Source: Promethearchaeota archaeon (GTDB lineage Archaea > Asgardarchaeota > Lokiarchaeia > Sigyniarchaeales > SOKP01). From it: a stretch of 64,000 bases of DNA. The translations under genes were made by a program, and so were the position numbers. The notes under the pieces were generated by a model that saw only the letters and a list, made by a program, of their open reading frames with translations, ran no database searches and was not told the origin of the DNA. This document shows, piece by piece, positions 2,210-63,479 of this stretch (position 1 is the stretch's first letter; each line of letters begins with the position of its first letter). Location of the stretch: assembly GCA_030599585.1 (NCBI GenBank), contig JAUVNS010000018.1:1-64000 (forward strand). Reading direction: 5' to 3'.

Positions 2210-2248
2210 GGTAAAAAAAAAGAACAAAACAACAAGAGTAAAAACACC

Positions 2249-3112
2249 ATGATAGAAGAAGTGCCTTTAGAAAAGTTAAAAATACGCGATAATCGAGTCC
2301 GGGAGGTAATCGGGGATTTAGCCGAGCTTATGAAATCTATGAGCGAAGTCGGATTACTCAACCCGCTTACAATAGACGACGACTATAACGTAATAGAAGG
2401 CACGCGAAGGTATTACTCCGCTAAAAACCTCGGGTGGAGTAAAATTACATGCGACAGACGAATCGGTCTTTCGGAGTATCAGAAAATTACGATAGAAATC
2501 GACGAAAACTTGCGGAGGAAGAACTTAAACCCCGCCGAAGAAGCAAAAGCTTTGGCCTTGAAAAAAAGAGCTTTTCTCAAAATACATCCAGAATACAAGC
2601 GTGGTGGCGATCGCAGGTCTGATAAGTTTAAAGACGGAAAGAAAAATCAAACTGCAATTGCATCACTTGGATTTGCAAGAACTCAGGCAGAAAAATTCGA
2701 TACGTCAGAAAGAACTATAATAACAAAAACGAAGATTGGCGAATATATCCTCGACGAGAAGTTAGACGATAAAACGATCGATCAATACAGCAAGAGAAAA
2801 CTCTCCCAGCGAAAAGTAATCGAGGAGATCAAAGCTTTAGAACAAGATAACGCAGACAAAAAACCGTCTTCAGAAAGCATCTCTCCCAAAACTACGGACA
2901 AACAAAAAAAAGTTAAGATTCCTTCGGAACTCAAAAGAAAACCAGAAATTATCGTAGAACTCGACTATAACGACGCGAAATACTGTAAAGATTGTAAGGA
3001 CGGGCTTCAACTGACCTGTCCAAGTTGCAAAGACGCAATAATTTCCTGTCAGTACTACAAGAACCCTTACTTACGAAGGATTGACTCAATAGCATGTGAA
3101 AACTTTAATTAG
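2249..3112 (+). CDS. parB: ParB/Srx N-terminal domain protein with HTH-like region and C-terminal Cys cluster
   Basis: GLLNPLTID...VIEGTRRY (ParB box II-like), IDENLRRKNL and GGDRRS; C-terminal CKDC-x7-CPSC-x6-C-x15-C. Confidence 0.85.
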   Translation: MIEEVPLEKLKIRDNRVREVIGDLAELMKSMSEVGLLNPLTIDDDYNVIEGTRRYYSAKNLGWSKITCDRRIGLSEYQKITIEIDENLRRKNLNPAEEAKALALKKRAFLKIHPEYKRGGDRRSDKFKDGKKNQTAIASLGFARTQAEKFDTSERTIITKTKIGEYILDEKLDDKTIDQYSKRKLSQRKVIEEIKALEQDNADKKPSSESISPKTTDKQKKVKIPSELKRKPEIIVELDYNDAKYCKDCKDGLQLTCPSCKDAIISCQYYKNPYLRRIDSIACENFN

Positions 3113-6527: not shown

Positions 6528-7210
6528 TTCGTAAATTCACTTCTATAACTGTTTACCAGTACCTTATCCCCTTTCTATATAAAGAAAAAATTTCCAAAAA
6601 AATTAAAATATTATAATTTTTTGTCAAATAGATCGTAATTCTTAACCTATATAAACTTCACTTAACGATAGCTTGCTTATTCTAATAGTGGCAACATAAT
6701 TTAGCGTTTTAAAATTATTTCCAACAACCCTTTTTTTATACACAAATTGATTTTTGAGCACAAACAGTTCAAGATTTTTCTTGAGCTAGAATTACATTTA
6801 TATAGAGTCAAATTTGAACATTCTCTGACAAAAAAAAAAGTTTTCTTCGTATTGAGTTAAGAATCATCTAACTTGTAAATTAGGAGGAATTATGTACGCG
6901 TTGATAATGACCATAGATCATTTCATGATCTTTTTTATTTTGGTTACAGATTTTGGTTTAAGTTGATTTAAATGATAGTAGAGCATAGAAAAATCAGAGT
7001 TAGATTGTTTGTAATCAGCTTTGGTTCATTCAATCACAAACATTTATAAATGAACGAAAACAAAATCATTATCAAAAGGATTAGTAACGTAATTCCAGAC
7101 AAAAAATTGCATTCAAAGTCTTTGTTCTTTAAATAAAATAGATCACAAGACCTTGTTTAACAAAAAATTGTAATAAAAAAACACAACTTAAACAAAAAAA
7201 AAAAGAATAA

Positions 7211-42300: not shown

Positions 42301-45300
42301 ACGAGATCGATATAGATAAAAACGGAAGGGTTGACGTTATTAAATTTGGAGTGGAGAGCGAGACCGATTCTAATGAGATTATCTGGCACACCGCAATCAA
42401 CGACTTTTTAGGAGACGAAACTGAATACGATCTAAAGTCAAGACCAAGAGAGACCACAAAGTGGTTCGACCTGGACGACGCAATGTTCACCACCTCTACT
42501 TCGTTGTTTACCATCTTTTTTGCCGAGTTAGATTATTGGGGTAAAAAATACGTGGAACAGACTTACGCAACAGATCAATCTGTTGAGTCATCGTTTTATT
42601 CTATAATGGTTGACGACGATTACGATGGAACCGCCAACACCCAATATACTTACGAAAAATCGAATTTTGTTCAATATACATACGTAATCAACAACGAAAC
42701 GACTATTTTGGCAGCGAAACCTCAGAACATGTTCACATACATATACGCTAGCATGGCAGAATGGATTGGGACTTTAGTTACCGGAGGGAGAGTCGATCCG
42801 ATCTTTAACGAACAACTCACTCCGGAGATGATAGAAAGCGGCTCTTACCCGGGCGACTTCCATTGGCTCGCCCCAGACATAAGGGAAACCTTAACTCAGA
42901 CATATAAGAAATATTCGATCGTGTCAACCAGACTCTATATAGAAAATTCCGTAAGCGAAAAAATAACCGTTAATAATTGGGAGAACGGAACCCTATTAGA
43001 AACTAGAATATACCAAGATTTGTTCAAAGACGATTCTATAGATTTGGGTATCGACCTTAGCCAGACCGTAACAAACTTAGAAACTGGGCAACAACAAGAC
43101 ATTCCTCTCGATTTCATTCCCGCAATCCAGACCGAACAAAATTCTTACGCCATATGGGACGATGATTCTAACGTGCCGGGTAAGTTTGAGTCTTTAACCT
43201 CAGTAGATTTAGAATCTTCATCTAGCGATAGTAGTAATTTATTCGAGCGAGATATACGCATAGTTATTCCTAGTAGAATTAACCCTTACAACGACTATAA
43301 AAAAAGCGTCTCGTTAAAAACATCTGGCACTTCCGACATGAGACTAAACATAACAGGAATACATATAACGCCCGCTGACGGTAAAGTTTATTATAGTTCT
43401 GATAAGGAATCTTTCAAACTTAATGGTGGAGATGCAGCCAAAACCGAAGGAAGTTATTTCTACTACGATAGCGATCAGAACGGGTTCATGGAAACAGTTT
43501 ACGTCCTATCTCCTGTAAAGGGCGCTGGGGACGACGCTTATTACGAGGTGGTGGCTATTGGCTTTAATTACGACGGCAAGCACGATTTCGTGCCGTATTC
43601 TAAGACTGAAATTGGTTCGCCTATCGAAAATTTAAACGAATTTAAAGATGTTCTTTCCCACGAAGTCTATCAGACGGGAGGCAATATCTTTGTGTTCTCT
43701 AAATTAGCAAGTGATACCGATCGCTTGTTCCCACCAGAAGATAGAGACGGATACGAAGTTAAAGATAACATATTTGAGATAAGAAAATTAATTACGCAGA
43801 GCGCCCAAAACGCCAGATTTTCCGAGCTTTTCTACGAAACCCGCCATAGAGAATTTAATAGCCTTTGGGAAGTATTTGGTGAAAAATTTGAGCGCGATTT
43901 AAGCGAACAAGTAGCGATTTCTATAACTGCTGGAATAGCAGCAGCTATTGCGAGAGTTTTTACTTCAGATTTGGGAGCTATGGCCGTATATTTTGGCATA
44001 TACACATCTCTTAGTTTGATTTCTAACGACGTGAAAGCACGCGAGGCGGAGGCGAAAATCAGATCTCAAACCTTTTACTCAGAAGACGCCGATAGCAACC
44101 AACCTAGATTTCTCAATAATAAATATCCTAAAGACGATATTTGGGGCGATAGCATGCCTGCTGCTCTGAGTGGACACCCTGGAACGTATTACGCTGAAGT
44201 TAGAGGAGGTCAAACGGGAAACGAATACTTAGGATACGTTGTTGCTGCACCCCCAAATGACGATCGGTGTTGGGGAGGTTCTAATAACTTCTTAGATTTT
44301 ATCGGATCTAATTTCGACCTAGCTTGGACAGATACCTTACCGCAAGACGTTAATCCCGACATTATGACTGGGTTAGACTTCGATTATCACAACTTAGACT
44401 TTTTAATGGTTGCCAGCGAGCTTTACTCTTACAACGACCAAGAACATTACACCTACTTGGAAGGTCAAGAATTAGCCGATACAATGTTGGTATTAGAACC
44501 AGTTTACGAGGACTACGATTTTGAACAACTCCTGTCCTACGAGGACTACGAGCTTGAAGATTTTGTAAAACTTTATCTAACTGGTCCTGAAATTGTCTTA
44601 AGAATCATTCAAAACTACGATTCGTACAAGTTACGGCAAAACACTCTCGGCTACTTAGAACACGAAATTACCGAAGCAACTAACGGCTCTCTCAATTCAA
44701 TAAGACCAATAATTTCGGACGAAGCACCTCAATATGTTTTTGCTCAAGAAGACGGAACTTCGCCTTTATCACCGCTTTTTAGCCCTCTTATAATAAGTTC
44801 CGCGAGATACGATCAACTGAGCGATTCTCGAAAGTTTGGTTATATTTTTGTAGATATTGCCTCTTCTGAGACGGCCAACACGAAAGGTATCGATTCAACC
44901 GACCTTCTAGACGAAGAAAGAGCGTTTTATTCCGCAAAAATACCGTTAGCCGACATGTATGGGGCGTTTAATTACCCAATCGAAAGCGTAATATTACACA
45001 AAGTGGTAGATAAAGAAATAACTTCCAGAACTCTTAACCCCTCTGATTACGAAGTTCCCGAAAAAGTGCAAAACCTTTACTTCACCCACCCAATAAAAGA
45101 CCTTATGGGTGATGAAGACTACCTCGCACACTCAATGACAAAAACCTATAGCGAAGAAACCGAAGTGCATTACATATGCGAGATCAAATTTGCTAAAATT
45201 ATACCTGACGACGGCAACCTTTCAGAAGAAAATCAGAGAAATTTATTGGCTCAAACCACCATGTATCCTATCTTAGATTATTTCGATCAGTATACCTTTG

Positions 45301-48300
45301 CCGCTACGACAGCTAAAATGATCGGAGAGATTGCTTACACCGAAATTATAACGGTTCAATCTACGTCGCGTTCAGCAATTATCGTAGCGATGGCAGGAGC
45401 TGCTGCCGCAACTCAAAAAAAGTTATCTGAAGAAGCGGTAGGGATGATCGCTCAAGTAGGGTCTTCGGTATGGTCCACTGCAGTATCCACTGCTCCATCG
45501 TCGATATTTTATAGTACTATAATCCAAATTGCTTCAGGAGCCACGAGAATCGTTGCCCAGACCGTAGCAGAGATGTTCGAAGAAATCATAGTTGACGGTT
45601 TCATCGAGACTTACTTCCAAAACTCTGCTCGAATGTTAGGCTGGACCGAAGGGGTCGGGAATTTGATTTCCACGCTTATGACCACGATTCGAGAAACCAA
45701 CATGTTTGGTATTTTCAATCTAGGAGGGCAAGACACCAGCTCGCAAGGAGCCAACTCGCTCGACGTTAATTTAAACGCCCAGACCGAGCAAGAACTACAA
45801 CACTCCTCGTTAACCGCAGAGCTATCCCAACTTATCGCGGAACGAGAGAACGACCAGTCGTTTACCTTAGAAGAATTTCTAAAAGAGAACAAAGAAGGCG
45901 TAAGGTCAATTATGTCCGAATTCGGCTTAGTTCCGAGCAGGCACGAGACCATACTGAAGATGGCAGGCATCATAAGTTCAGGCATTTTTGCCGGGCTTTC
46001 AATGTTAGTTCCGGGACTAAGTTTTGCGGGCTTTAGTTTGTACGGGTTTAGTCCCATGATTAAACATCTAGGAGGAAAAATCGGCGGACAAGGAACTGGG
46101 TCTACAACTACGATGCGCGCAGCCCTACAGAACGCTAGAAAGAGCGAGATATCGCAAGATATTGATGCGAAAATAATTAAACAGATGGAAGCAAAAAGCG
46201 GGCCCATCGACGCAATATTTAGGAGTAAGTCAGATCAAGCGGCAACTGTTAAATCAATAGGGAGTATTAGCCACACGGGAAGAGCGGTCGAATACTTGGT
46301 AGACACCAAAGCCAAAGACTTTGACCCAAACACCTACTATGCATTACAATCTCAAGCCCAAACTTTCTACGAACCATCTTTGATAGTTAAAAACTTAGAA
46401 GCTCAAATAGAAACGACTAAATACATAGCAAAAGCAATCGAGTCTTTAGGACTAATTAAACAGACTATTTCCGATATAGAAGAAAAGGTAGAGACTTCAT
46501 CAGAAATTTCAAGCATAAATTTAGATACATCAGCTATAAAGAGTCCAATACCCATCGAAGACCCAATCACATGGCTTCTAGATGCAGATTACGAAGGGGA
46601 CACTTACAAAAGAATTCTTTTACCCGGTCTACTTAAGATGACAGTTCCTGAGTTTAAACTTCTTGTAATGCAAGAATACGACGTTCAATATGCGATAGAT
46701 ATATTCTACGGTCCGATTAGCTACGTGGATCCAACGACTTACGATATCGAAATCGGCAGAAAAGTCGGCTCTTTAGATATCTACAGTGATACTACAATGG
46801 GAGAGATATTAGAAGAATTAAACATTGATCCAGAGAACCCTCTAGAACATTTCTTCGTAGTGCCTAATACTGAGAGCACCGAAAATAGGGAAAATCTAGA
46901 ACAAATGGTAGATTCTCCAGCTTATACATTATTTAAAGATGTTTTAAGCAGGAATTTTGAAGGTCGTGATAACGTCATTAAAGCGTTCGGAACTCCAGAA
47001 AAAGTAGCGTTTCTTTCCAAATTTTACCAAGAAGTTATTGGTTACCTAAAAACGGCTATGATGGACAAATTCGGTATATCTGAACAAAATTTATTCAGCG
47101 AGTCAAGCGGTTTGATAAGGGGTTATGTAACACAAGATTTGCATGGTGACGAAGTGAAAGCAATTTGGGAAGAATCAGGAGCAACGACTGACGATAAAGC
47201 TCGATTCAACAAAAAAATAAAAGAATATATTGAAGACAGGTTTCTAAGTTACATAAAGGAAGATGGTTTCAAAAAGGGAGATTTTGACGTTTTAATAGAA
47301 CATAGAATGGATGAGACGATATTATTATTCCTACTAAACGAAATGGATACCGAGGACACAACTCCTGAAGGTTTATATTCCAAGTTTAAAGAATTCTATT
47401 ACGAATTCGACTCAATAGTAAGGGATTTGCACTCTGTAACTTACGATCTCACTAATCCAGCTGGCTTGAACCTATTTATGCAAAATTTCTTACAAACCTT
47501 TTACTCTACTGCGCTAAAAGGTAAACCCTCTCATTATACTAATGCAAAAACCTTTATTGGTGAAATTCCCGAAACTGGAGCTGTTAGACATGCTATTATC
47601 AAGCTTGCAAGAAGGTATGCTACGCACGGATTTCAAGATTTTGACATTGGTCACGATATGCAATACACAGCTCTAGGTCCTAAGGAAGATATCAACGATA
47701 TCATAAGCGATTTAAAAGCGAAAAAAGAGATTGATAACTTTGGAATAGATATAACCACCAGTTTTACCCCATTATTAGTAAACCACCAAGACGTTCTTTA
47801 TACTCTGTCCCCTAATTTTATCTCTAGTTTAGAAGTCAAAAATTCACGAAGAATTGATAGTATACATGCCATATACGATATAGGAATAGATGTTTTTAGA
47901 ACGATCGACATCGATAAATATTTCTCGTTCGGTCTTGATAAAGTTCCTGTTAGATACGAGGACTTTTATTTACCTGTTTCTTCTGCGATGATACCTTCAA
48001 TATTTTATAATATTTTTGGTACCCGCGATCCAAATAACATGAGGCATCTCGGTTTTAATGCTGATGGAACTATCACTAAAACGGGTGATCGAAAAGGAGA
48101 TAGCGAATCATTATTCTTTCTACAAGTAACTAAAGCTCTTAATAATTTTATTAGCACACAATTCTCGGGACTAGATAAAAACGCTTTAAAATCAAATCTT
48201 AAAGAAGTTTTCGACTTTCTTTCTTTAGAAGAACCTTTAACATCGCCTAGTTTACCAATTTTCGGAAACTTTTTGGATTTCGCCCTTGATGAGCTTGAAG

Positions 48301-51002: not shown

Positions 51003-51018
51003 TTTTTTTTTCTATTTT
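51003..51018 (+). terminator. Oligo-T terminator candidate for the giant gene
   Basis: T9 run immediately after the TAA, followed by further T-rich sequence. Confidence 0.5.
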
Positions 51019-51080
51019 CCAGACTTTATTTATATTTCATTTGTATTTATTGTAAATAACCCTTTCGTCATTATAGAAGT

Positions 51081-52154
51081 TTAAGAACAATCTAACTTGT
51101 TGTTTTCCAGTGCTAAGACTTTTAGCGATTTCATTTCTTTTATAGATTTCGGTAATCTAGTTAGATGGTTATTATTTAATGCTAGAACTTCTAAGTTCTT
51201 TAACTTTTTTATTGATTCAGGAATACATGTAAGCTTGTTTATGCTTAGCCCTAGTCGCTTAAGGTTAAATAATTCCGTTACGATCTCAGGGAAGATTTTA
51301 AAATTGTTGACGCCTAAATAAAGTAATTCGAGAGATTTTAAAGAAGATATTTCGCGAGGAAGAGTTTCCAACTGGTTACCGCTTAGGTTTAACTCTCGAA
51401 GGTTTTTTAGCTGCCCAATCTCTTTTGGGACATACAAAAATACATTCTCGTCTAAATAGAGCTTCCTTAAAGATGTTAATCTTGTTATTTCTAAAGGAAA
51501 ACGTGTTAAATGGCAATGCCTTAACTCCAATCCAATTAACTTATTTTTTTCAAATTCAATCGCAAATTGCGGATTGCCGTATTGGTTATCGAACCATAAT
51601 TCTTCTTCGATTTTTACTTCAGCTTTGGAAAGTATTTGCAATTTATTTAAAATTAAGACTTCCTCATTTTCTAAAAATGTTTCAATTAACTTTTCTTTTA
51701 CATATTTTCTTACATAACCATTTCCAATTAGATATCGGACAATAATTGGATGACCGCTTTCAAACCTTTTTACGATTTCTTCTTCAAATACTGCTTTTGC
51801 TACTTGATCTCCAACGTCAGTTAAAGCCTTTAACATAGGAAACGCTAAAGTTCTATGCAATAGTCGCGTATCGTAATTAAACTCGTACCACGCTTGAAGG
51901 TTAGAACAGTGTGCCCAAAACTCTTCTTCTGGTAGTATTTCAAATTCTTCTAAAGCTCTTTCTTCTAACGATTGATCCAATAGTCTTTCTGCCTCGTCAA
52001 TAGACATAATATCTTCAAAATTTTCAATATTATTCTCGTCTATATAAATTAATAGAAATTTACAGTGTCTAAACAGTTTGTCTTTTATATAAATATTGGT
52101 CTTACCGTTTTCTAGTCGTAATTTTAAAAATTCATTTATTTGAAATTCTTTCAT
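51081..52154 (-). CDS. Leucine-rich repeat protein with Lokiarchaeia-type N-terminal domain
   Basis: About six 23-aa LxxLxLxxNxL repeats; N-domain LRLENGKTNIY...CK...EEEFWAHCSNLQAW...LLHRTLAFP. Confidence 0.92.
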   Translation of the reverse strand: MKEFQINEFLKLRLENGKTNIYIKDKLFRHCKFLLIYIDENNIENFEDIMSIDEAERLLDQSLEERALEEFEILPEEEFWAHCSNLQAWYEFNYDTRLLHRTLAFPMLKALTDVGDQVAKAVFEEEIVKRFESGHPIIVRYLIGNGYVRKYVKEKLIETFLENEEVLILNKLQILSKAEVKIEEELWFDNQYGNPQFAIEFEKNKLIGLELRHCHLTRFPLEITRLTSLRKLYLDENVFLYVPKEIGQLKNLRELNLSGNQLETLPREISSLKSLELLYLGVNNFKIFPEIVTELFNLKRLGLSINKLTCIPESIKKLKNLEVLALNNNHLTRLPKSIKEMKSLKVLALENNKLDCS

Positions 52155-52583
52155 AAAACTTTAAGTCTCAATTTTATATCCTATTAATTTAACGAAAACG
52201 GGCTTATATAAACTTTTAGAGATAAACAAATTTTTAAACCAATTAGATAATGACTCCCCATTAATTAAAAAGAAATGTATTTCACTTTTTTCTTACTATT
52301 TTGTTGTTTGATTAATTCTGCTTAATAAAGGAAAGGTTAGAAGGGTAACGCGTTGAAAATTGGTATCCTTTGTTGATAAATTCACGATAAAAAACAATTT
52401 TTATTGTTATTTTTTTCTTTTTGACACAAGTAAAACTTGAAGAAAAGCTTGGTTTTAAATCAATATCATAATCAAATAGGTTTGGGAATTTTAGAAGAAT
52501 TAAAGAATTTTTGATGAGATTTAAAAATTATTATACTATATACTTTATTATATTGTTAAGACATTATTTAATTATCATTGTAA

Positions 52584-52880
52584 TTGGGGAGAGTTTATCT
52601 GGAACCAGATAAGGAAACTTTGATAAAACTGGTTAAACAAGGCATTGAAATGTTAGCAGAAAGGAACATTAGTAGCATTCTAGTCCTATCATCATATAAA
52701 ATAAATTCAGTGTTAAAGGATAACTATGGCGTGAATATTAAGGTTGATAGAATTGGAAGAATTCTCTCAAGCGTAGCTAAAAATAATAAACTCAAGAGGC
52801 TAGGAACTCAGATCCCAAAATACCAATTGCAAATATCGAAAGTTGGAAGACTTCGGTATCCCGAATTGTTGTCTTCGTAA
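52584..52880 (+). CDS. Small winged-helix-like protein
   Basis: TTG start; VDRIGRILSSVAKNNKLKRL...PKYQL helix-wing pattern. Confidence 0.6.
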   Translation: MGRVYLEPDKETLIKLVKQGIEMLAERNISSILVLSSYKINSVLKDNYGVNIKVDRIGRILSSVAKNNKLKRLGTQIPKYQLQISKVGRLRYPELLSS

Positions 52881-52955
52881 AGTGAGATAAATATTTCACA
52901 AAATCTATTTATATAATCTATCTGCTTGAAATTTATAAAAAAAGTAAAAATCCTA

Positions 52956-54335
52956 CTATTTCTTAATATTTCGGAAGTCAGGAATTATTTTTTGTAATCT
53001 ATCAATTAACTTTTCAAGTTCGACAAAATCGCTATTAAAGCTATCTAATTCTGAAATTAAATTATCGAAATTGGTAGTAATGGTTATTTCAAAGGGATGA
53101 TTGATAGCACTTATTCCTTTTAACATGTCGATAGAGAGACTTTCTATTAGATTCGTTAAATTTGAGATTTGGTTTCCTGATGATTCAATTTTCTCTCTTG
53201 TGTTTGTATCTAATTTGGTTAATTCGTATAGTTTATTGATGGATTCATCGAGATTATTTTTTATAGAATTAGCGATATCACTGATACTACGCTCTAAAGA
53301 CTCATTAATTTCACTTTTTAAGATTTCACTGATCTCTTGTGTATTCGATTTTAATTCTTCTTGCCCCTCAAGACGTTTTCTTATGTATCCCTCAACTTTT
53401 TCCTTATATTCATCTATCCTTTCTTTAAATTTTAGATCAATCCATTGTTCTACTTTTTCGAAACCACTATTAATCGCAGAATCCATTTCTGAAAGGGAGT
53501 CATTTATTTTATGAAGACCTATTAAAGCTCCATCATTAAAATCTGTAGACCATAATTCTAATTCAGATTTGTAATTGGTTAAGACTAAGCTAGATAAATT
53601 CTGTAGTCCTTTTTTAAACCCGTCTATAACCGGATTAATGTTAGGGTATTTTATGTCGATTTTCGTATCAGTTTGACCTATTGATGTTGGAATTTCTTGA
53701 AGATCACCTGGAATTCCTTCAATCATCTCAAATTTCTCGGGTATTATATTTGGATCCTTCGCTTGACCATATTCCACAAGCTCTCGAACCCAATTGAAGA
53801 AATCTAGGGATTTTGGTGGCTCGATTTCGTTTTTTACTCTAACTATTCCACTTTTTTCTCCTAATTTGTGATTTTTTAATTGGAATACTTCTAATCCTAA
53901 ATGATCGGCTTTTTTAAGTTGAGAGGGATCAAATACAATTCCAAATGCTAAGGGGTTCTGTTCATTTTGAAAATATAAATGGTTCTTTTTATCAACATCT
54001 GAAAAGAAAAATGAATCGCTGTTAGGGTGTGAATGATACCAACCCACAACGGAATAGGTCTCCTCTTTAACTTCTTCTTTTAGCTGCTCAAGTGATTTAT
54101 GAATCTTTTCTGAAAATCCTAATTCAACTTGGTCTCCGTGCGTAATAGGAATGGCTTTGATCACGTCAATGTCATCGCTGTCAGGTTTTTTGATACCCAA
54201 ACAAAATCCTATAACCTGTTCATTATCAAACATAACGTTTGCAAATCGTAACGCATGAGTAAGAATATCTTTATACACACTCATTCGTATGAACACTTTA
54301 CCATTTTCTCTGGTTTCAACTGTGCTCTCATTCAT
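52956..54335 (-). CDS. MPN+/JAMM (Mov34) metalloprotease domain plus long coiled-coil
   Basis: NEQVIGFCLG, AIPITHG, VGWYHSHP-x7-SDVD and GIVFDP, followed by ~230 aa of heptad-rich helix. Confidence 0.9.
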   Translation of the reverse strand: MNESTVETRENGKVFIRMSVYKDILTHALRFANVMFDNEQVIGFCLGIKKPDSDDIDVIKAIPITHGDQVELGFSEKIHKSLEQLKEEVKEETYSVVGWYHSHPNSDSFFFSDVDKKNHLYFQNEQNPLAFGIVFDPSQLKKADHLGLEVFQLKNHKLGEKSGIVRVKNEIEPPKSLDFFNWVRELVEYGQAKDPNIIPEKFEMIEGIPGDLQEIPTSIGQTDTKIDIKYPNINPVIDGFKKGLQNLSSLVLTNYKSELELWSTDFNDGALIGLHKINDSLSEMDSAINSGFEKVEQWIDLKFKERIDEYKEKVEGYIRKRLEGQEELKSNTQEISEILKSEINESLERSISDIANSIKNNLDESINKLYELTKLDTNTREKIESSGNQISNLTNLIESLSIDMLKGISAINHPFEITITTNFDNLISELDSFNSDFVELEKLIDRLQKIIPDFRNIKK

Positions 54336-54337
54336 CT

Positions 54338-55792
54338 CTATTCATTACCTCCTTGTTCGAGTTCTTTGATTTTTAATAGTAATTCTTTTTTTTCAGATTC
54401 CAATTTTTCAATTTTTTCAAAGATAGGTGCTTTTGTTCCTTCTAAAATTAAAACTGCAGCTTTTAAGTTTGTCACAAACTTTTGAGAATTTTTTTGTAGG
54501 TCGCTAATTGAATTTTTCATTAAACCATACTTCTTCGAAGTAATATCTGAAGTTTCTTTTTGCATATTTTTTATCTTGTCGAGTGTCGAATCTTTTATCG
54601 AGGCTATTTTATCCGATAATGTATTTAATGAATTCTCTAATATTTCGAGATTCTCGAGATTTTTAGTTAAATTCCCATTGAGGTTCATTATTTTACTGTT
54701 CCATTCGTCGTAATCTTTTGAGAAATCATTTTTCAATGCTTCAAATTTCTCTTTAAAAGAAATTTTTAGTTTCTCTTGAACAAATTCCTTTATCTCTCTC
54801 AAGATTTTTCCTATTTCGTCATGGTATTCATCGATTTGGTCTAAAAAGTCGTCAACATAGCCTTCTGCGCTAAATAATTCAGAATTTAAATCGTCCTTGT
54901 ATTTCCTCTGGATTTTATTAATTCCAGCGTTCACTAAATTTTTTAATTGAGATAAATTATTCCTCATTTCGATGTTGTTATTCTCAATTTCTCCTGAAAT
55001 GTTTTTAGCTATCGAATTTAAATAGGAAATTAAGGGTGATAAAGATAAATCTACAAAGTTAGCAAGACCAATTTGAACGGATTCAATAATTTTTTGTTGA
55101 TCTATTTCAGGTTGCTTAAACCTTAATTGACTCAATTCAGGGACTTGAACATCGCCAAAAATATCCGCTGTTTCGTTTTCTTCCATAATCGGGGGTTTAT
55201 TTGTATACACACCATTAATCAGTTCTACAAGCTTAAAATAATAATCCACATCATTAGGTGGTTCAACAATTGCTTTCACTTCGTGAACATTCGAACTCCT
55301 AATGTCTGTAGGATTCGTTAATCTAAGTGCTCTAAATCCCGGGTCATCAGAGCTTTCCAAATATGCGTGGTCAAAAACTAGTGCTATACCACTTGGATTC
55401 AATTCATTTTGCCAGCCGAATTGATTTTTTACATCCGTAGGAGAAAAGAATATTTTGTGCTGGAAAAGATTAGGATGACTATGATACCATCCTACCATAA
55501 ACCAGTTTTTTTCTAAATACATCGAATTAGCTTTTTCAAAGAAAATATAATCATTTATTGAAAATTCGACTTCTACACTACTTCCGTGAGAGATAGGTAC
55601 GGAATCTTCAATTACGACGTTTTTAAACTTCTTATCTTCGCCCTCTTCGTGATGTCCAATGAGTACTCCCATCACTTCGATACACTGATTATGATTTCTC
55701 GCTTTGTTCCCAAAGCGTAATACGTGTAGCACCATTTTGTAATAAGCAAGTGGTTTTATCTTTACAACACTACTATCTACATCTTTTCCCAA
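54338..55792 (-). CDS. Rpn11/CSN5-like MPN+/JAMM metalloprotease plus long coiled-coil
   Basis: LAYYKMVLH, IEVMGVLIG and VGWYHSHP-x9-SPTD; coiled-coil C-terminal half; ends 2 nt before its paralog. Confidence 0.9.
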   Translation of the reverse strand: MGKDVDSSVVKIKPLAYYKMVLHVLRFGNKARNHNQCIEVMGVLIGHHEEGEDKKFKNVVIEDSVPISHGSSVEVEFSINDYIFFEKANSMYLEKNWFMVGWYHSHPNLFQHKIFFSPTDVKNQFGWQNELNPSGIALVFDHAYLESSDDPGFRALRLTNPTDIRSSNVHEVKAIVEPPNDVDYYFKLVELINGVYTNKPPIMEENETADIFGDVQVPELSQLRFKQPEIDQQKIIESVQIGLANFVDLSLSPLISYLNSIAKNISGEIENNNIEMRNNLSQLKNLVNAGINKIQRKYKDDLNSELFSAEGYVDDFLDQIDEYHDEIGKILREIKEFVQEKLKISFKEKFEALKNDFSKDYDEWNSKIMNLNGNLTKNLENLEILENSLNTLSDKIASIKDSTLDKIKNMQKETSDITSKKYGLMKNSISDLQKNSQKFVTNLKAAVLILEGTKAPIFEKIEKLESEKKELLLKIKELEQGGNE

Positions 55793-56039
55793 TTTTTATC
55801 ACTTCAGCTTTTAAGAACTTAATGAATTTATTCTACAATATATTTGTTTTTAACAATTATAATTTTGAGCAGTTAATATAAATGTATAGTGGATGATAAT
55901 TTATTCTTCTTTTTCATTTATATCTTTTTTTAGATACTTAATTTTTAAAACAATCTTAGTCAACACCTAATTAAAAATAAGAATACTACATCTTTTTGTA
56001 AGAACGGTTGAAAGGATTTTATAGAAGAAAAGATTTAGT

Positions 56040-56717
56040 TTAATGGGGTAGTGGTTTCCCGCAATAAGGACAGAATTTCCAGCCAATATCTTTCCCACAA
56101 CTAGGACAAAAAGTGGAAGTCCCGGTACTAGGGCTATCAGGTGAGGTAGGACCTCCGCCCGCTCCTTTTGGGATTGAAGGTAAACTTCTTGCAGTTTTTA
56201 GAGTCGATGGTTCTTGTTGACCCTCCTTGGCTTTTTTTTCCTCCTTAATATACTTCATTCTCTCTTGAAATGCCTGGCGTTTTTCGTCTTCTAATTCTTG
56301 ATTTGATTTCATACCCTCTTCTTTTACCCATCCCGTAGCTGCTGGTCTCTTTATTTCGCTTTCTGGAACTTTATCTAATTCAACTTCTTTAGCTTCAGAA
56401 ATCGGAGCTGCAACTTTTTTTTCTTCGCTCCTGGTAATAGCTTGCTTAGTTAATGCGTGCACAGTCTTCATAATTTGGTGAGGATTTATATTAGGAATTG
56501 CTACTGTTCTCAGCACCCATCCAACCATGATATTTTGGTTAGGAAAACCAGAAGCGCTCATATCTTCCTCTTTGAAAACATAGGAATCAATAATATCATT
56601 TCTGCCTTTCAGTAAACGGATGGCCCATTTATCGTTTATAAGTCCTAATTGAATTCTATACGAAGTTCCAGAAATTCCTAGTTGACTACTAAGAGGTTCG
56701 AATCCTTTTTCTGAAAT
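56040..56717 (-). CDS. Protein with C-terminal double zinc ribbon; probably longer than the 173-aa track call (candidate ATT start at 56717)
   Basis: C-terminal FCPSCG...FCPYCG. Frame stays open to 56729 (SEKGFEPLSSQLGISGTSYRIQLGLINDKWAIRLLKG...), with GGTG just upstream of ATT-ATT-TCA. Confidence 0.7.
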   Translation of the reverse strand: MSEKGFEPLSSQLGISGTSYRIQLGLINDKWAIRLLKGRNDIIDSYVFKEEDMSASGFPNQNIMVGWVLRTVAIPNINPHQIMKTVHALTKQAITRSEEKKVAAPISEAKEVELDKVPESEIKRPAATGWVKEEGMKSNQELEDEKRQAFQERMKYIKEEKKAKEGQQEPSTLKTARSLPSIPKGAGGGPTSPDSPSTGTSTFCPSCGKDIGWKFCPYCGKPLPH

Positions 56718-57062
56718 AATTACACCAGCTCAATTTAATTGTGATATCTAACATTCTTATAAGATTTAGATGAGACTTTGGTTTGCTATTCATAATAAAT
56801 TGTTTTTATACCCCTATAAATTAATTTATTATTTTAAATAGATATTTATTTCAAATGTTGTTGAATTTATATCTTTTACTATATTATAACATATTTCGAT
56901 GTTATAATTTCATTAATTATTTTTAAGGTTAGGAAAAGAAGGTGTTGAGCTGTTTACAAGATAAAGAGAGGATTATTTAGAATCTCTACAAATAAAAGGA
57001 TTGTCTGAGAAATAACGAAGTGAGAAAAATTATTAAATTCACCTAAGGGAATTTAAATCTGG

Positions 57063-57863
57063 TCACTTATAATAACCAGATATCTTAAACAAAAAACTGC
57101 TTTCCCCTAATCTGTGCTTATATACTTTAAAAATTTCATGGACTTTATTTTTAAAATACTCATTCTTATTATAATATAATTTATCAATGAGAATAGTCGT
57201 CCAATAACTAATATCAAGGTATTTCTTATTAAATGAATCTCCAAACAAGACCAATAGATCGAATAACCTTATTTTTGGGTGTTCTATGAGAAAAAAAATA
57301 TCATCATCACAAAGATCGTATTTCTCTCTATCATATGTTAAAATTTCATCCAGAACGGATTCATTAATTTCTTTATCTAATAAATTTTCTTTAATGGTTT
57401 CAAGCAACAATGAAATTTGTTCATAATTTAAAAACGAAAAATATTGGTTAAACACCAAAAAAATAATAACTGAAATGTTTTGAGTCTCTTCAACCTTTTT
57501 AAAAATCTCTTCTCTAAATACCTTTCTTGCCGTTTTATCCCCCAAAAGCATTAAATCCTTCAGTAAAGGAAAGGCTAGAGAGTAATGAAGTAACCGAGAA
57601 TCATATCCACTTTCGACCCACGCTTGAAGATTCGAACAATGCCCCCAAAACTCATCACGGGCGGAGATATAAAAACGAGAATCTTGCACAATTTCCCCTA
57701 AACTCTCGATATAGTCAAGATTATCTAAGGTTTTGATCTGATCTGAAGATAAATTTATAACTAACTTCTTGCACTGTGAAAAAAGAACATTGTTCAAGTA
57801 AATATTAGTTCTTTTGTTTTCTAACCGTAAAGAAATTAATTTATTTATCTTATATTCATCCAT
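57063..57863 (-). CDS. Lokiarchaeia-type 'HCSNLQAW' domain protein lacking LRRs
   Basis: LRLENKRTNIY...QCK...DEFWGHCSNLQAW...LLHYSLAFP is a clear paralog of the N-domain of 51081..52154. Confidence 0.85.
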   Translation of the reverse strand: MDEYKINKLISLRLENKRTNIYLNNVLFSQCKKLVINLSSDQIKTLDNLDYIESLGEIVQDSRFYISARDEFWGHCSNLQAWVESGYDSRLLHYSLAFPLLKDLMLLGDKTARKVFREEIFKKVEETQNISVIIFLVFNQYFSFLNYEQISLLLETIKENLLDKEINESVLDEILTYDREKYDLCDDDIFFLIEHPKIRLFDLLVLFGDSFNKKYLDISYWTTILIDKLYYNKNEYFKNKVHEIFKVYKHRLGESSFLFKISGYYK

Positions 57864-57895
57864 TTTTCTTAAAAAAATAATAAAAAAAAGATTAT

Positions 57896-60800
57896 TTAAA
57901 GATTTAGATTGTTTGATAATGCTAAAGCTCGCAATCTATTAAAATTATACCCTAAAGTACGAAGTAAACATTTATCTGAAAGCTTCTTGATTGTCGACTC
58001 AGAATAACCTAAACCTCCCAATGCAACTAACAAAGAATATGCATTATATTCATATGGAGAACTTCTTATTAATGATAATGCCAATGTTAAATAATAATGC
58101 TTATCTGGTCGGGAAGAGACCAATGCCTTAAAAGTCTCACGATCTTCTTCGAACCTAGTTGGCAGAATATTTTCAATAATTAAATCCTTTAATTCAGTAA
58201 AAGTTAATCCTCTAAATCTCGTCTTAATAACACCACTATAATCCCTTCTAAGGGATAAATCACTATACTCCTCTCCAAATCCTAGCTTAATGAGGAAGTC
58301 ATAGCAAGTGATAGAATACCCTTCTTTTCTAAGAATGTCAACAGCTCTTCCCCAGTAAATAGAATCAGGATAATATCTATCATTAAGTTCATTGAGAGAA
58401 ATACCTTGTCTAACATTGAATTTTGTCAAAGTTTTAACATCTGTAAACCCCGGAAGAATTGGAAGCAGATCTCGATTGTGGACTCTATGGTTAATACTAG
58501 ATATAAATCTTTCAACTCGTGCTTTAATAACCAAACCTCTATAATCTCCAATGTGAGCTAATGGGATATCAATTTCAAATTCTTCTTCTACTTTCTCCTT
58601 TAATAGTTGAGAGACTAATTTTTTATTTATTCCAGACAAACCTGGATCGATCTTTTTTGCTGAAAGGTCTAAAATTCTCACTATCTCGTATAATTGGTAT
58701 CCTTTCTCAAAGTAGTTATAGATTAGCTCTTTTTGATAACCTCTTAGTATTTTCTTAAATGTCTTCTGTTCTGGGTATTGTTCTTCTAAGTTTCGATCCA
58801 GTAAAGTGCGTGAAAATTTTGACTTGAACGATTCTTGAACTAACTCTATGTATAATTGCTTTCCAAAGGCTAAACAAGCAATCTTTTTAAAATTATTATG
58901 TAAGTCTATAAATGGAATTATGGTACCTGATTTAGATCCAATCCTTCCTCCCATATGGATGTTGGCACCAAATTCTTGGTATTGCGAATGAAACAAACCT
59001 ATCCAAGCTATCTCAGCAAAATCAGCTAATTCACGAGTTCTTGCTTCAGCTATTCTAAGTGCCTCTTTACGTTCCACACTATCAACAATTCTATTAATCT
59101 CGTTCATGTCCCCTTGAAAAGTAATAACTTGCAGTATCTCAAATCTAAACACCTTTTTAGCTTCTTCAATGTTCTCAGTATATTCACTAATTAGCTGCTC
59201 AATATAAGAACGTGGATTCGTAAAAGCCCGTTCTAAGTGTTCCTCGTATCTTAGTATTGGAGAAACTCTTCCAGTCTCCCCAACATACATCAGATCTGGA
59301 AAAGGAATGAAATCTGAACCTTGTGTATCTGTAAGTTTCTTATTGTACTTATTCCAATAGATTCTATAAATATATCTTGTGCCTGCGGAATAATCTTCGT
59401 GCAAATTCCGAATGGCTTTCATCTTCTTTAGCAATATTGTATTTTCTAAATTATGATCAATTATATGCCCACAATGCTTACATTTGTAACGAATGGTATC
59501 TTTGTCATTAATCAATCGAACTAAAGACTTAGTCTTACCTTCAAACTCGAAATTGTGTCTTACGAATTGTTTATGTTCTTTGTTATCATATCTACAAGCT
59601 CCTATCTCAGCATAGTAATGGCTTACTCTCTTTGATGGTTGTTTTAAAAGACTTGACGGTTTTGTACGAACCATTCCAAACATCGACAACCCGGAAAATG
59701 TTAATCCACAGAAGAAACCGAGCGGACCTAAAGAAAGCGTAAGGAAAGTCGTCATAGTTCCAAAAGTTGCTATCCCAACGCCAATCCCAAGATTTTTAAC
59801 GATAAATTCTTTAGTGTTTTGGATACCATCTCCAACTTTTCCAGCAATTCCAGAGATAGCAACTTTAACGGGGTTAAATATTTTGCTAAACACTTTTTTA
59901 ACCGAAATATCTTCAGTGAGACAATACGTTGCAATCGTTGTAAATGCTAGAGCGCCAAAAGGTCCGAGGAGGAACGAGGCAGCAAAACCTGTTGCCAACG
60001 AGACAAAACTAAGAATTTTGTTTGCCCCTCTAAGGATCGCCATTTGGCTTTCTTTAGCCGTTTGCTGAGAGTCGAAATTGCTAGAGTAATCGTTAAATTC
60101 GTTAATAAATTCTTGAATCGTCGGTCTCTTATCTTTAGAGAAGTAATTCGTATCGAGAATTTCTGATAACGACTGCTGTTGAGTCTGTTCAGAGCTAAAC
60201 ATTGTCGAAAGCGGTCCGCTGATCGCCTCTCTACCGCTCTCTGCGATGGAACTAAGGACCATCTGCATGATAGCGTCTCCGCCTGCTCGTCGCACTAATC
60301 CCGAGACCGTGCTTTCGATCCAAGGGTCTAAAAGGAGTTCTTGTCCCATTTCCTTCGTCACGGCTCCGATAACGGTAGCAACGCTAAAACTCTTAGCCGC
60401 ACCTAAAAACGTCTCCAATAACCTTCCAAGCACTTTGCTCGATACTTCGCTCGCTGAGTCTTTAAGAGAATTTACGATGGATCCCATACCAGCAGAAAAG
60501 CCCATAGTGAGCGCGGTAGAAATCGCGGTAACTATTGCCGTGTAAATTAATTCGTGGAATCCCATCTGAGTTTGTGTTGCAAGGTTAAATTGGTAGTTGT
60601 ATTCGAGGATGGCAGCTTCGATGGCTTGAGCAGTCGCAATTTTATTTACTTGCTCTGAAGTGAGGTCTCGAACGTCCGAGATCGAGCGGTATTTCTCCAC
60701 TTTTATCTCGAAAAGTATTTTTGGTTGAGAAACTGAATAAGTTAATTTATCTTCGTCTAATTCTTCTTCTTTTGTAGCGTACGAATTTAGTATGGTAGAA

Positions 60801-61990
60801 AGCGTTTGAACCGAACCAATAGTAATAATTCCAGTGCTCAAATCGACATCAAATTCTCCATTTTCTAAAGTGACCAGATGGGAGTTAGCGGTTTGCGTAC
60901 CAGCCCCGAATGTATTGGGCGTCACGCTCCAAACCACGTAGGCGTCGATCGATACGATATCCGCTTGGAGGTTTGATTCCGTGTCAAATAGCTGGATTTC
61001 GATGGAAGTAATTTCTTCGGGATTTTCAATTTCCATTATCTTGTAAATAGAACCGTATTGGTCCGCTGCCGAGGAGTCGTCCGATACAAAAACGGGATAC
61101 TCGGTGTAAAATTCAGGAGCGGGGATTCCGCCCATGGAATCGATAAAGCTATACCTTGGAGCAAACCTATCGCGTTCGGAGTCGTAGTCTATTGTAGGGA
61201 TGATGGTGTCGAGGTATGTGTCTCTGTTATCTGCCGTATCTTCTTGGATCTGGTTCTCTATGTAATACACGGAACTCTTTGCGTGGTTAAATTCGGGAAT
61301 TCCAATATTGTCCACAAGCGGGTTAATTGCTCCAGTCGATTGGAGGTATCCTACAACGAGATAGTCGTCAAAATCGGAGTATCCCGCCAAGTTCCGAGTG
61401 GATAGCCAATAATCTAATTTTGGATACGAGTAAGATGTTGTAAGCGAGGACGCTTTAGATTCTTCGAAATTAAACTCTCGAACGATAATATCGGCGCTAT
61501 AGGAAAATTCTTTTGTGTCTCCATACACGGGGGCGTACACTCCACCAAACGAACCAAATATAGTTATTGGCATAACATCTCCGTACATGTCGTCGAACCA
61601 GAACTTATCTCCTAACACTTTCTCGCCAGAAGAACCGTCTAAGCGGAAAGTTCGGTGAGCAAAGTAATTCTCTTGTTCTAGAATTTTTGCTGTTTGGAAA
61701 AGAATTGACACTCCAAGATATCCTAACATAAAACCGAATGGTCCTTTATCTAAGAGAGCAGAGCCCAACAATCCTGCTGTTGTCGCAAGGAATTGTTGGA
61801 ATACGTCTAACACTAGAGTACCTAAATCGGTCTGCTCTTCGAACTGATTTGTCGCCATCTCTTCTGCCATCTCGATCAGATCGCTGCTTTCTTGCGTAAA
61901 CACCATTTTACTTATGTCAAAAAGCACGTCGCTAAAGGTAGGCTCGTTAAACGTTCCCACTTCTTTATCAGTTTCTCTAAAGTGAATGTC
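57896..61990 (-). CDS. 5'-truncated giant-protein homolog: conserved stalk, hydrophobic hairpins, Zn ribbon and GIY-YIG nuclease tip
   Basis: N-terminal ~770 aa align by eye with the giant protein stalk. Tip has RYIYRIY...LMYVGETGR...RYEEH...FRFEIL...AEIAWI...GANIHMGG. Frame is open past the GTG at 61960 up to 61990. Confidence 0.8.
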   Translation of the reverse strand, partial: DIHFRETDKEVGTFNEPTFSDVLFDISKMVFTQESSDLIEMAEEMATNQFEEQTDLGTLVLDVFQQFLATTAGLLGSALLDKGPFGFMLGYLGVSILFQTAKILEQENYFAHRTFRLDGSSGEKVLGDKFWFDDMYGDVMPITIFGSFGGVYAPVYGDTKEFSYSADIIVREFNFEESKASSLTTSYSYPKLDYWLSTRNLAGYSDFDDYLVVGYLQSTGAINPLVDNIGIPEFNHAKSSVYYIENQIQEDTADNRDTYLDTIIPTIDYDSERDRFAPRYSFIDSMGGIPAPEFYTEYPVFVSDDSSAADQYGSIYKIMEIENPEEITSIEIQLFDTESNLQADIVSIDAYVVWSVTPNTFGAGTQTANSHLVTLENGEFDVDLSTGIITIGSVQTLSTILNSYATKEEELDEDKLTYSVSQPKILFEIKVEKYRSISDVRDLTSEQVNKIATAQAIEAAILEYNYQFNLATQTQMGFHELIYTAIVTAISTALTMGFSAGMGSIVNSLKDSASEVSSKVLGRLLETFLGAAKSFSVATVIGAVTKEMGQELLLDPWIESTVSGLVRRAGGDAIMQMVLSSIAESGREAISGPLSTMFSSEQTQQQSLSEILDTNYFSKDKRPTIQEFINEFNDYSSNFDSQQTAKESQMAILRGANKILSFVSLATGFAASFLLGPFGALAFTTIATYCLTEDISVKKVFSKIFNPVKVAISGIAGKVGDGIQNTKEFIVKNLGIGVGIATFGTMTTFLTLSLGPLGFFCGLTFSGLSMFGMVRTKPSSLLKQPSKRVSHYYAEIGACRYDNKEHKQFVRHNFEFEGKTKSLVRLINDKDTIRYKCKHCGHIIDHNLENTILLKKMKAIRNLHEDYSAGTRYIYRIYWNKYNKKLTDTQGSDFIPFPDLMYVGETGRVSPILRYEEHLERAFTNPRSYIEQLISEYTENIEEAKKVFRFEILQVITFQGDMNEINRIVDSVERKEALRIAEARTRELADFAEIAWIGLFHSQYQEFGANIHMGGRIGSKSGTIIPFIDLHNNFKKIACLAFGKQLYIELVQESFKSKFSRTLLDRNLEEQYPEQKTFKKILRGYQKELIYNYFEKGYQLYEIVRILDLSAKKIDPGLSGINKKLVSQLLKEKVEEEFEIDIPLAHIGDYRGLVIKARVERFISSINHRVHNRDLLPILPGFTDVKTLTKFNVRQGISLNELNDRYYPDSIYWGRAVDILRKEGYSITCYDFLIKLGFGEEYSDLSLRRDYSGVIKTRFRGLTFTELKDLIIENILPTRFEEDRETFKALVSSRPDKHYYLTLALSLIRSSPYEYNAYSLLVALGGLGYSESTIKKLSDKCLLRTLGYNFNRLRALALSNNLNL

Positions 61991-63092
61991 TTATGAAGAT
62001 CGTTTTCGGTTTTTGATCCCAATGTATTTCGGTAAGAATACCGATGGTTTTATTCTCCTTCTTGATATATCAATGATACCTGCTTACAAAAAGGCAATTT
62101 ATTGGTTGTCTATAATTAAGAAAAAAAATATAAACAAACCTGTTTTACTAATATTATTTTCGTTAAATGAAGAAAATGTCCACTCTCATTTACTAAATGA
62201 ATTAAGCCGTGAACAAAATGTAATACTTATTAAAAATCCAATAAAAACTGAATTAGATATTCTTAATATTTTAAAATATCTTTCTTGTATAATATTTGAC
62301 TTCCAAATTCCTGATTCTATTCTTGCCAGACTTGACATAATATCAGATAATTATACAAATAAAGCTTTTAAAATCTCTAATGAAGAAGTAACTCAATTAG
62401 AAGAAGGACCTATATCTATGACAAATTTCCATTTTATTTACAAAGAACTCTTAACTAACATTAAAGAAATAATTCAAGAGCCAACTGTTAATAAACTCCT
62501 GCCTCAATTTGAGCAATTAGAACAGCATATTGAAAAACAAGAAATGCGAGTCAATTCTATGAAAGGTAAATTACTAGAAATGAATGTACGCTTACTCTAT
62601 GAGAGAGAATATGGTTACGAAATGGATTTTACTGGAAAAAATTTTATGTGCGAAGAGAATGAAATTGAAGTTCTATACGATAACAAATGTATAAAAAAAC
62701 ATAGCACAAAAGATATAGAAATTGATGTATTTGGAAAAAAAATCAAAAATGTAAATGATCTCACATACTTAATTGGGGAATGTAAAGATAGAAGAAAAAA
62801 AATTACTTTGAAAGAAATAAAATGCTTTATTATTAAAGCGGTTATTATCGCTAAGTTCTATTTATATACTCATAGCAGAGAGAAGATGTCTATACCAAAA
62901 TTTCATTTATTAATCGTTTCTTACCATGGATTTCCTGAAAAAACAATAATATATGAAATACTTAACAAATATTGGAAGCCTAATCTATCGAAAAAGCGGT
63001 TAATTAATGAAAATATTGACCTACTAGAAGAAAAGAAATTTATTCATTTACTGAAAAAAAATAATATTTCTATTAAAGAATATAGTAATTAG
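61986..63092 (+). CDS. N-truncated Rab/Ras-like GTPase fragment fused to a PD-(D/E)xK nuclease domain
   Basis: Starts at switch II (EDRFRFLIPMY...DGFILLLDI...W...PVLLI) with no P-loop; C-terminal GKLLE...EIDVFG...IGECK. Confidence 0.7.
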   Translation: MSYEDRFRFLIPMYFGKNTDGFILLLDISMIPAYKKAIYWLSIIKKKNINKPVLLILFSLNEENVHSHLLNELSREQNVILIKNPIKTELDILNILKYLSCIIFDFQIPDSILARLDIISDNYTNKAFKISNEEVTQLEEGPISMTNFHFIYKELLTNIKEIIQEPTVNKLLPQFEQLEQHIEKQEMRVNSMKGKLLEMNVRLLYEREYGYEMDFTGKNFMCEENEIEVLYDNKCIKKHSTKDIEIDVFGKKIKNVNDLTYLIGECKDRRKKITLKEIKCFIIKAVIIAKFYLYTHSREKMSIPKFHLLIVSYHGFPEKTIIYEILNKYWKPNLSKKRLINENIDLLEEKKFIHLLKKNNISIKEYSN

Positions 63093-63479
63093 TTTTGTTT
63101 ATAAAAACCTTTTAATACTAATTCTTTGAATAAATACAAAGCTTTGGCGTAAGACTAATTTGGGAAAGTGAAAAGGTTTTTATAGATGTAAATAAGATAG
63201 TTTGTAAGGAAAGATAAAAATAGTAATAAAATTTCGTCTGGTTCTGGAAAGATTTGATCAGACTGAACAAATATAAGAAATAAAATAGGATGTATATCAA
63301 CCATGACTTCTGCCCCGCCCTGGATTTTTGTCTTTTGGTAGTGTGTAATACACACTCATTTCGCCCTCCTCCCCCTATTTTATTTCTGACCTTCTTATTA
63401 GGTCTTGGTGGCAGGAGTCGTTCTATTAAGTAAATAATATGGTTAACTATACTGGAATTAATTTGGTTAGAGAATAAAT

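Follow-up and report, generated by a model that had tools for sequence, protein, structure and literature searches.

Background

Bacterial polymorphic toxins, such as CdiA-CT/CdiI, Rhs and MafB, include tips of the Tox-URI (GIY-YIG), HNH, REase and BECR types, and leucine-rich repeat (LRR) proteins form one of their immunity classes (Zhang et al. 2012, PMC3482391). This study concerns a stretch of 64,000 nucleotides (nt) from a Promethearchaeota archaeon (contig JAUVNS010000018.1, positions 1 to 64,000), referred to as the window. It encodes a giant surface protein of 13,902 amino acids (aa; 9294-51002, forward strand) and, on the reverse strand, a shorter open reading frame of 1354 aa (57896-61960), hereafter the short ORF. 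On the evidence presented below, the two probably belong to a polymorphic toxin-immunity system that Loki-type Asgard archaea use on cell contact and that is located at the ends of large integrated mobile elements.

Two other groups of giant proteins are relevant to this locus. Aloposons of Heimdallarchaeum are integrative elements in which partition genes lie upstream and the giant Otus/Ephialtes genes beside the integration end, and truncated giant fragments have been reported among them; they feature tandem giants of 3,000-6,000 aa, tRNA sites and a ParA-like ATPase, and no toxin or immunity role is proposed for them (Wu et al. 2022, PMC8813620). Giant proteins of Omnitrophota are membrane-anchored and have been proposed to act on neighbouring cells, and Asgard archaea hold most of the archaeal proteins longer than 10,000 aa (West-Roberts et al., 10.1101/2023.11.21.568195). 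The archaea studied here live in sediment and are related to the ancestors of eukaryotic cells. Contact of Asgard archaea with neighbouring cells is poorly known, and cell contact is central to ideas on the origin of eukaryotes. A literature search, with one key review outside its coverage, returned no paper describing the scaffold, stalk, size, convergent partners or glycan-free cargo reported here. New in this analysis are the origin of the short ORF, the co-variation of tips and partners at 68 loci, the position at element ends and the purge of glycosylation sites from the tips.

A shared stalk with exchangeable tips

The giant proceeds from a basic cytoplasmic N-terminus through a membrane anchor and an acidic glycosylated body to a conserved stalk and a variable tip. 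Its stalk (43701-46190, forward strand), a putative target-membrane insertion region, is composed of helical hairpin 1, an alpha/beta domain and hairpins 2-3, and about 770 aa of it are shared with the short ORF. In BLASTP, residues 11-578 of the short ORF (window 61930-60229) aligned with residues 11,491-12,134 of the giant (window 43764-45693) at 20% identity, with 65.9 bits and E=2e-13; the same alignment scored 41 bits with composition correction on. Local shuffles (n=60) reached 28.7 +/- 2.4 bits, with a maximum of 35.8. The similarity on which a sequence-only reading of this DNA had been built is thus statistically significant. Three of the four shared blocks named in that reading lie in register, but the first pairing was misaligned, as the block of the short ORF belongs about 18 residues upstream of the one chosen in the giant. 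The Gly/Ala-rich hairpins were found in both stalks, with a best 19-residue hydropathy of about 1.7 against 2.0-2.9 in the N-terminal anchor helices. The reported fall in CpG density at the end of the stalk was also reproduced, from 42, 39 and 34 to 13, 10 and 7 per 600 nt near 59650, and from 35, 35 and 38 to 20, 20 and 23 per 600 nt near 46300.

A family profile of the stalk (772 positions), which includes both window sequences and matches each at E<1e-180, was found in 57 of the 135 genomes of one Promethearchaeia (Loki) family and in 4 of 266 genomes outside it. All matches that carry a name belong to Promethearchaeia/Promethearchaeota, and 291 representatives remain at 50% identity. Open frames with the stalk extend up to 20,619 aa, the giants measuring 11,000-20,000 aa. 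The modelled stalk (831 aa; pLDDT 77, pTM 0.76) consists of long helical hairpins around an alpha/beta domain.

When the sequences that follow the stalk were tabulated, 68 complete tips were obtained, whose last 250 aa form 35 clusters, so that the C-termini are many and unrelated rather than invariant. By motif reading, about 20 tips are HNH-like, 13 are of the PD-(D/E)xK type, 11 are GIY-YIG, six are BECR RNases, one is a PF14528 homing nuclease and one is papain-like. Most are therefore recognisable as a nuclease, RNase or peptidase, in line with the enzymatic tips expected earlier; Pfam and PHROG confirm a minority of the types read from motifs. These domain types occur in many members, and activity of the tips is predicted from them. 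Sixteen tips are unclassified, and 15 of these are 1,550-1,800 aa long, like the tip of the window giant. At the start of a few tips lies a ubiquitin- or ThiS-like domain (best E=2.6e-9) or an S24-like peptidase. An iterative ubiquitin profile gathered only 3 of the 68 tips, and lookalike segments in others were left unconfirmed by it.

Closely related stalks may carry entirely different tips. One genome holds two stalks that are 83% identical, followed by an HNH-like and a GIY-YIG tip respectively, and in another, three stalks sharing 85-88% identity precede mutually unrelated tips; tip swaps appear to be both abrupt and recent.

Several further observations regard the tips; here and below, C-numbers denote contigs of the genome of the window (G000) and L-numbers denote stalk loci. 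One tip (L019:8712-10658) combines two enzyme types: a PF14528 homing nuclease with two domains precedes a BECR-type RNase. A free ubiquitin-like gene (G000 C47:25939-26235) lies beside the partner of the C47 giant and is 50% identical to the ubiquitin-like module in tip L053; it carries a short extension after the di-glycine, and this extension lies at the likely insertion junction. A stand-alone TPR protein (G000 C37:789-2186), 26% similar in its C-terminal part to the middle domain of long tips, is a possible module donor. Moreover, the giants at L039, L051, L052, L076 and L163 are interrupted by a frameshift or stop, located within the stalk, close to it or past the anchor, and tip and partner are intact.

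Partner genes follow the tips

Directly behind each of the 68 tips lies a gene, which is co-oriented in 53 cases and convergent in 15. Of these 68 partners, 34 belong to the LRR proteins or possess a Loki-specific N-terminal domain, against 27 of 3691 genes genome-wide (0.7%), and 65 are devoid of a hydrophobic segment. For 33 of 44 partners, the best match came from the same tip cluster (permutation mean 3.0, maximum 13), a statistic that is lowered by a few automatic partner calls which are antisense shadows. Furthermore, near-identical stalks with differing tips have unrelated partners, and one partner (67% identical) accompanies its tip in either orientation. Since best matches stay within the tip cluster and near-identical stalks are served by unrelated partners, the partner tracks the tip and not the stalk or kinship. 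The adjacent, tip-specific partner is a candidate immunity gene, a role to which genetic co-variation points.

In the window, the partner of the giant is a convergent LRR gene (51081-52154, reverse strand; Pfam LRR) with the Loki-specific N-terminal domain. The homolog most similar to it (63%) sits, also in convergent orientation, next to the tip that most resembles that of the giant (L039), and paralogs of the LRR gene are 36% identical over their full length; this gene is a candidate immunity partner for the tip of the giant. Tip-only cassettes with matching partners are present on C30 of the same genome, and together with 25 truncated stalk-tip cassettes such orphans are dispersed over the chromosome and not arranged in tandem. 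The pattern of a conserved delivery region with a variable nuclease tip, recognised earlier as that of polymorphic toxins, is in this way supported, the immunity half being supplied by the tip-specific partners and the tip-only cassettes.

Glycosylation sites are purged from the tips

The 68 tips contain 2 N-X-S/T sequons, against 485 expected. No sequon is present in 66 of them, a condition found in 1.8% of matched cytoplasmic windows, and when one tip per cluster is considered, 0 are observed against 231 expected. Control motifs occur in the tips at 0.86-1.0 of expectation, and the non-glycosylatable N-P-S/T motif is enriched (39 against 15.6). The observed/expected ratio is 0.93 in the cytoplasmic proteome, 0.89 in the partners, 1.23 in the giant body and 1.34 in ordinary ectodomains, and the cytoplasmic N-termini of the giants hold 9 sequons against 16 expected. 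Within the stalk, depletion is strong in the hairpins (0.04, 0.08) and far milder in the middle domain (0.49). The designation of the stalk as translocation-like is based on this pattern and on its anatomy.

The genome encodes an STT3/AglB gene, and in archaea this enzyme works on the outer face of the membrane. The tips, which are basic as cytoplasmic proteins are, would reside outside the producer, because a purge of sequons implies contact with the glycosylation machinery. The simplest interpretation is that an exported tip has to stay glycan-free, like cargo threaded through a membrane.

The short ORF is a remnant of another giant

The stalk of the short ORF (59651-61989, reverse strand), which is 5'-truncated and of the type found in the C47 giant, shares 68% aa and 78% nt identity with that protein up to an abrupt change to an unrelated tip, and its dN/dS is 0.20. 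The homology begins exactly at window 61989, where the remnant abuts head-to-head on a truncated small-GTPase-like/PD-(D/E)xK gene (61986-63092, forward strand) that has lost its own 5' end: residue 4 of its product aligns with residue ~66 of intact small GTPases. Homologs of its C-terminal half are TPR fusions and hence no guide to the original length. For these two reasons, the start of homology and the abutment, the short ORF is read as a 5'-truncated remnant of another giant, and it probably lacks a promoter of its own. An origin as orphan of the adjacent giant was rejected, the stalk being 20% identical to that protein and 68% to the C47 giant. In run X1, possibly the source sample, one contig spans the remnant junction and a second covers the end of the giant, the LRR gene and the host block that follows it.

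The tip of the short ORF (57896-59650, reverse strand) comprises a Zn ribbon, a GIY-YIG-like nuclease (58931-59383) and a helical tail, and contains 0 sequons. The GIY-YIG assignment made earlier is supported by a profile of 10 other GIY-YIG-type tips, which matches this tip at E=2.7e-6, and by the conserved Tyr, Gly, Arg, Glu and Asn, all of which it has, Pfam and PHROG giving no GIY-YIG match. Its top Atlas clusters are likewise GIY-YIG (0.83, to be taken as a lead only). Its candidate immunity partner (57063-57863, reverse strand) is co-oriented, begins 32 nt past the short ORF and has the Loki N-terminal domain and no LRR. One X1 contig departs at window 57874, just past the stop of the short ORF, into 255 unrelated bases, and may represent a variant with another downstream gene.

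Architecture of the giant and its genomic setting

The N-terminal multi-pass anchor of the giant (11241-11961, forward strand; aa ~650-890) has 6-7 helices with hydropathy 2.0-2.9, the last of which is predicted by the positive-inside rule to be oriented in-to-out; a multi-helix anchor is common to most of the full-length relatives examined. The extracellular body (11962-43700, forward strand) spans about 10,600 aa, is acidic, carries 160 sequons and has no Pfam family. Pfam searches over all 13,902 aa (E up to 0.05-0.1) returned no significant family and neither RHS/YD nor FHA repeats, as the sequence-only reading had noted for RHS/FHA, and both tips and the stalk were likewise without a significant Pfam match. 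The tip of the giant (46191-51002, forward strand; about 1,600 aa) belongs to the 'long' class, contains 0 sequons (13 expected) and has homologs that are 28-72% identical. Described earlier as an unknown tip, it has no match to a known family or fold in sequence or fold searches: a model of its last 1,000 aa (pLDDT 67) gave no fold match above background when searched whole, a procedure that single domains may escape, and its Atlas features are unnamed clusters only, all <0.8. The same genome encodes three full-length giants (13,902, 14,552 and 13,858 aa). Their bodies are mosaic, in that aa 1268-1798 and 6627-7391 of the window giant recur in the C47/C24 giants as blocks of 40-72% identity in changed order; the three proteins are otherwise 21-26% identical.

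The giant lies at the end of a multi-copy integrated element, whose primase-like and ParB genes occupy 1-3112 (forward strand). A 601-aa secreted, C-terminally anchored protein (7211-9016, forward strand) is a possible accessory factor; its homologs flank all three giants of the genome and those of 6 of the 12 relatives examined, and primase-like, ParB and 601-aa-protein genes also occur near several other giants. Past the LRR gene lies a host block conserved in the genus, consisting of two MPN/JAB genes and a Zn-ribbon gene (52603-56737, reverse strand), the normal neighbours of which are located on contigs C10 and C52. The MPN/JAB genes (52956-55792, reverse strand) have long coiled-coil tails, and their operon flanks have been replaced by insertions on both sides; the pair was considered as part of the toxin system and rejected, being a conserved host block between two insertion ends. 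Because the usual neighbours of the block sit on other contigs, giant plus LRR gene and remnant plus partner are each read as the end of a large insertion. Both junctions are imprecise, with ~75 and 110 nt of host DNA lost and no duplication, and the left one (52603) truncates a small conserved gene at its 5' end. Rfam and ARAGORN detected no tRNA or RNA family within the window, and neither junction is at a tRNA. Across the family, host genes resume past the partner at dozens of different loci. Among closed short ORFs with flanking sequence, 25 of 27 have truly lost their 5' part, with the break ~300-2,060 aa or less from the tip, and two truncated short ORFs lie between adjacent host genes. 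A tRNA is found near the giant at 1 of the 68 loci (137 nt from its end), a count obtained with ARAGORN, which detects only 17-21 tRNAs in the genome.

Copies (70-95% identical) of what is seemingly one large integrated element are present on C10, C52, C9, C49, C12, C20, C51, C32, C24 and C30, and include genes for a primase, ParB, RPA-like, FEN1-like and RadA-like proteins, a DNA ligase, a HerA-family ATPase and a tyrosine integrase. A search not made in depth identified no transfer or capsid genes in them, and some copies could be bin contamination. A short repeat at window 63150-63420 has copies on C9, C35, C39, C10, C32, C16 and C20 (74-93%) and very high depth in public runs. Just past the window, contig C23 encodes within the second insertion a large secreted protein of ~1,650 aa (64668-69629). 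At other loci, an inverted N-terminal fragment of a giant (L026:172-4083; 68% to aa 539-1844 of the window giant) lies head-to-head with a truncated stalk-tip cassette, and a truncated cassette starts at the apparent beginning of a group II intron reverse transcriptase gene, as judged by eye (L029:6815-7243).

Discussion

At the sequence level, the system displays four genetic features of polymorphic toxins, namely an exported protein with a conserved delivery part, diverse exchangeable C-terminal domains of toxin type, an adjacent tip-specific gene and orphan cassettes, and it is not a member of the Rhs or CdiA groups. In the model proposed here, N-terminal helices hold the giant, and its glycosylated body of ~10,000 residues is exposed on the outside of the cell; the anchor and the composition are observed, and the export route is conjectural. 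On contact, the marginally hydrophobic hairpins of the stalk would enter the target membrane and the unglycosylated tip would be threaded into the target cytoplasm, steps suggested by sequon avoidance and hydropathy. There the tip, in some members freed at a ubiquitin-like or S24/S26 peptidase module, would cut DNA, RNA or protein. The adjacent cytoplasmic partner, often an LRR protein, would neutralise the tip in the producer and its kin, presumably by binding, as their co-variation suggests. Tip and partner would be exchanged through recombination in the stalk, as the observed swaps indicate, and truncated stalk-tip-partner or tip-partner cassettes would be remnants that keep immunity and may serve as donors.

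A number of results weigh against this interpretation. The stalk model, searched whole against Foldseek PDB, VIA wide and Atlas, gave no fold match above background (best Z 6.4, to unrelated helical bundles), though single domains may escape such a search, and 34% of stalks reach a hydropathy of 2.0, enough for a true membrane helix. Across the family there is no conserved autoprotease or cleavage motif, and ubiquitin-like modules are confirmed in few tips only. No catalytic domain is recognisable in the tip of the window giant by sequence and fold searches, and many nuclease tips retain long tails for DNA binding, in which they differ from most nuclease toxins of bacteria (Zhang et al. 2012, PMC3482391). 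Moreover, the genomes are related metagenome-assembled genomes, so that counts are not independent and serve for description only, and G000 has a contamination of 8.9%.

A further-reaching possibility, which we consider doubtful, is that the giant is at once a weapon and a spreading device, where delivery of an unglycosylated nuclease into a neighbour, partner-end-first insertion at the break and, in some members, release of the tip at a host-like ubiquitin module would amount to a gene drive without any known conjugation or virus apparatus. At its core is a toxin-antidote drive, itself unlikely, which extends the toxin model rather than replacing it: the delivered nuclease breaks the recipient chromosome, the element inserts partner-end first, survivors are those that capture at least the partner end, and truncated cassettes are aborted insertions. 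That tip and partner occupy the end of the element, and that single-copy host genes continue beyond them at dozens of different loci, agrees with such a drive, as do the loss of ~75/110 nt of host DNA without duplication at the two window junctions, the 25 of 27 closed short ORFs truncated near the tip, two of them between adjacent host genes, the repair and replication genes on the elements and the homing-endonuclease type of most tips. However, RNase and peptidase tips could not cut a target site, related elements carry a tyrosine integrase, and a tRNA gene lies 137 nt from the end of one giant. An internal deletion after integration would also account for the short ORF, joined as it is to a second cargo-like gene that is likewise truncated, and the search, having used the stalk, under-sampled long remnants only in part.

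The purge of sequons counts against each of the three remaining explanations. The sequence-only reading had offered as alternative a giant receptor, whose hairpins span the producer's own membrane and whose tip is a cytoplasmic effector, for instance of abortive defence, restrained by the partner. Partners are indeed cytoplasmic and tip-specific, a third of stalks are hydrophobic enough and the tips are basic like cytoplasmic proteins, but the near-total absence of sequons (2/485) has no counterpart in cytoplasmic proteins (0.93), partners (0.89) or the N-termini of giants (9 vs 16). With an N-terminal anchor already in the protein and no clear gain from rapid swapping of an effector, the receptor is very unlikely. 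It is more improbable still that the tip is a surface-displayed enzyme working outside the cell on extracellular DNA or RNA, phage or conjugative DNA. This would fit an exported tip and the many nucleases, but ordinary ectodomains are rich in sequons (1.34), a cytoplasmic tip-specific partner would be needless, and the DNA-binding tails and the diversity of tips would be left unexplained. Finally, an adhesin gene whose end repeatedly received in-frame insertions of selfish homing endonucleases that act in the producer would explain the GIY-YIG, HNH, PF14528 and PD-(D/E)xK domains with DNA-binding tails and the shift in composition at the junction. This idea is largely refuted by a purge that extends across all tip types, by the cognate partners and by the RNase and peptidase tips, and no intein or intron features were seen; it is the least credible of those considered.

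If the contact toxin-immunity system is real, it would be a family-wide weapon with three eukaryote-flavoured parts: a module for crossing membranes that is so far undescribed, LRR proteins that each guard against a specific toxin, and linkers resembling ubiquitin. The purge of sequons would provide a general sequence-only marker for archaeal cargo that is exported and then threaded into another cell, usable on other giant archaeal proteins, and it marks the ~16 long tips without known fold as possible sources of new toxin chemistry. The size of tips and partners is suited to work in E. coli or Haloferax.

Comparison with known systems

As in aloposons, to which they are likened by description, the Asgard elements have a partition gene (ParB) upstream and a giant at the element end; they differ in their single giants of 11,000-20,000 aa and in the presence of a tRNA near 1 of 68 loci. 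Omnitrophota giants carry cell-wall enzymes and SecA domains, in place of which the Asgard giants have exchangeable tips with partners. Nuclease colicins and AB toxins employ helical translocation domains, with marginally hydrophobic hairpins before the cargo and a nuclease and immunity gene borne on mobile elements; the Asgard stalk, searched as a whole model, gave no structural match, and the giant is tethered to the cell, not released.

Compared with bacterial polymorphic toxins, the Asgard giants have no detected RHS/FHA repeats or known trafficking domain and a stalk without a fold match. They feature instead an N-terminal multi-pass anchor, a length of 11,000-20,000 aa and tips that measure 500-1,800 aa and bear DNA-binding tails. 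Their partner is often convergent (15/68), their orphans are dispersed, glycosylation sites are purged, and some tips have ubiquitin-like linkers. What they have in common with the bacterial systems is a conserved delivery region, a swappable C-terminal nuclease, RNase or peptidase, an adjacent cognate partner and orphan cassettes.

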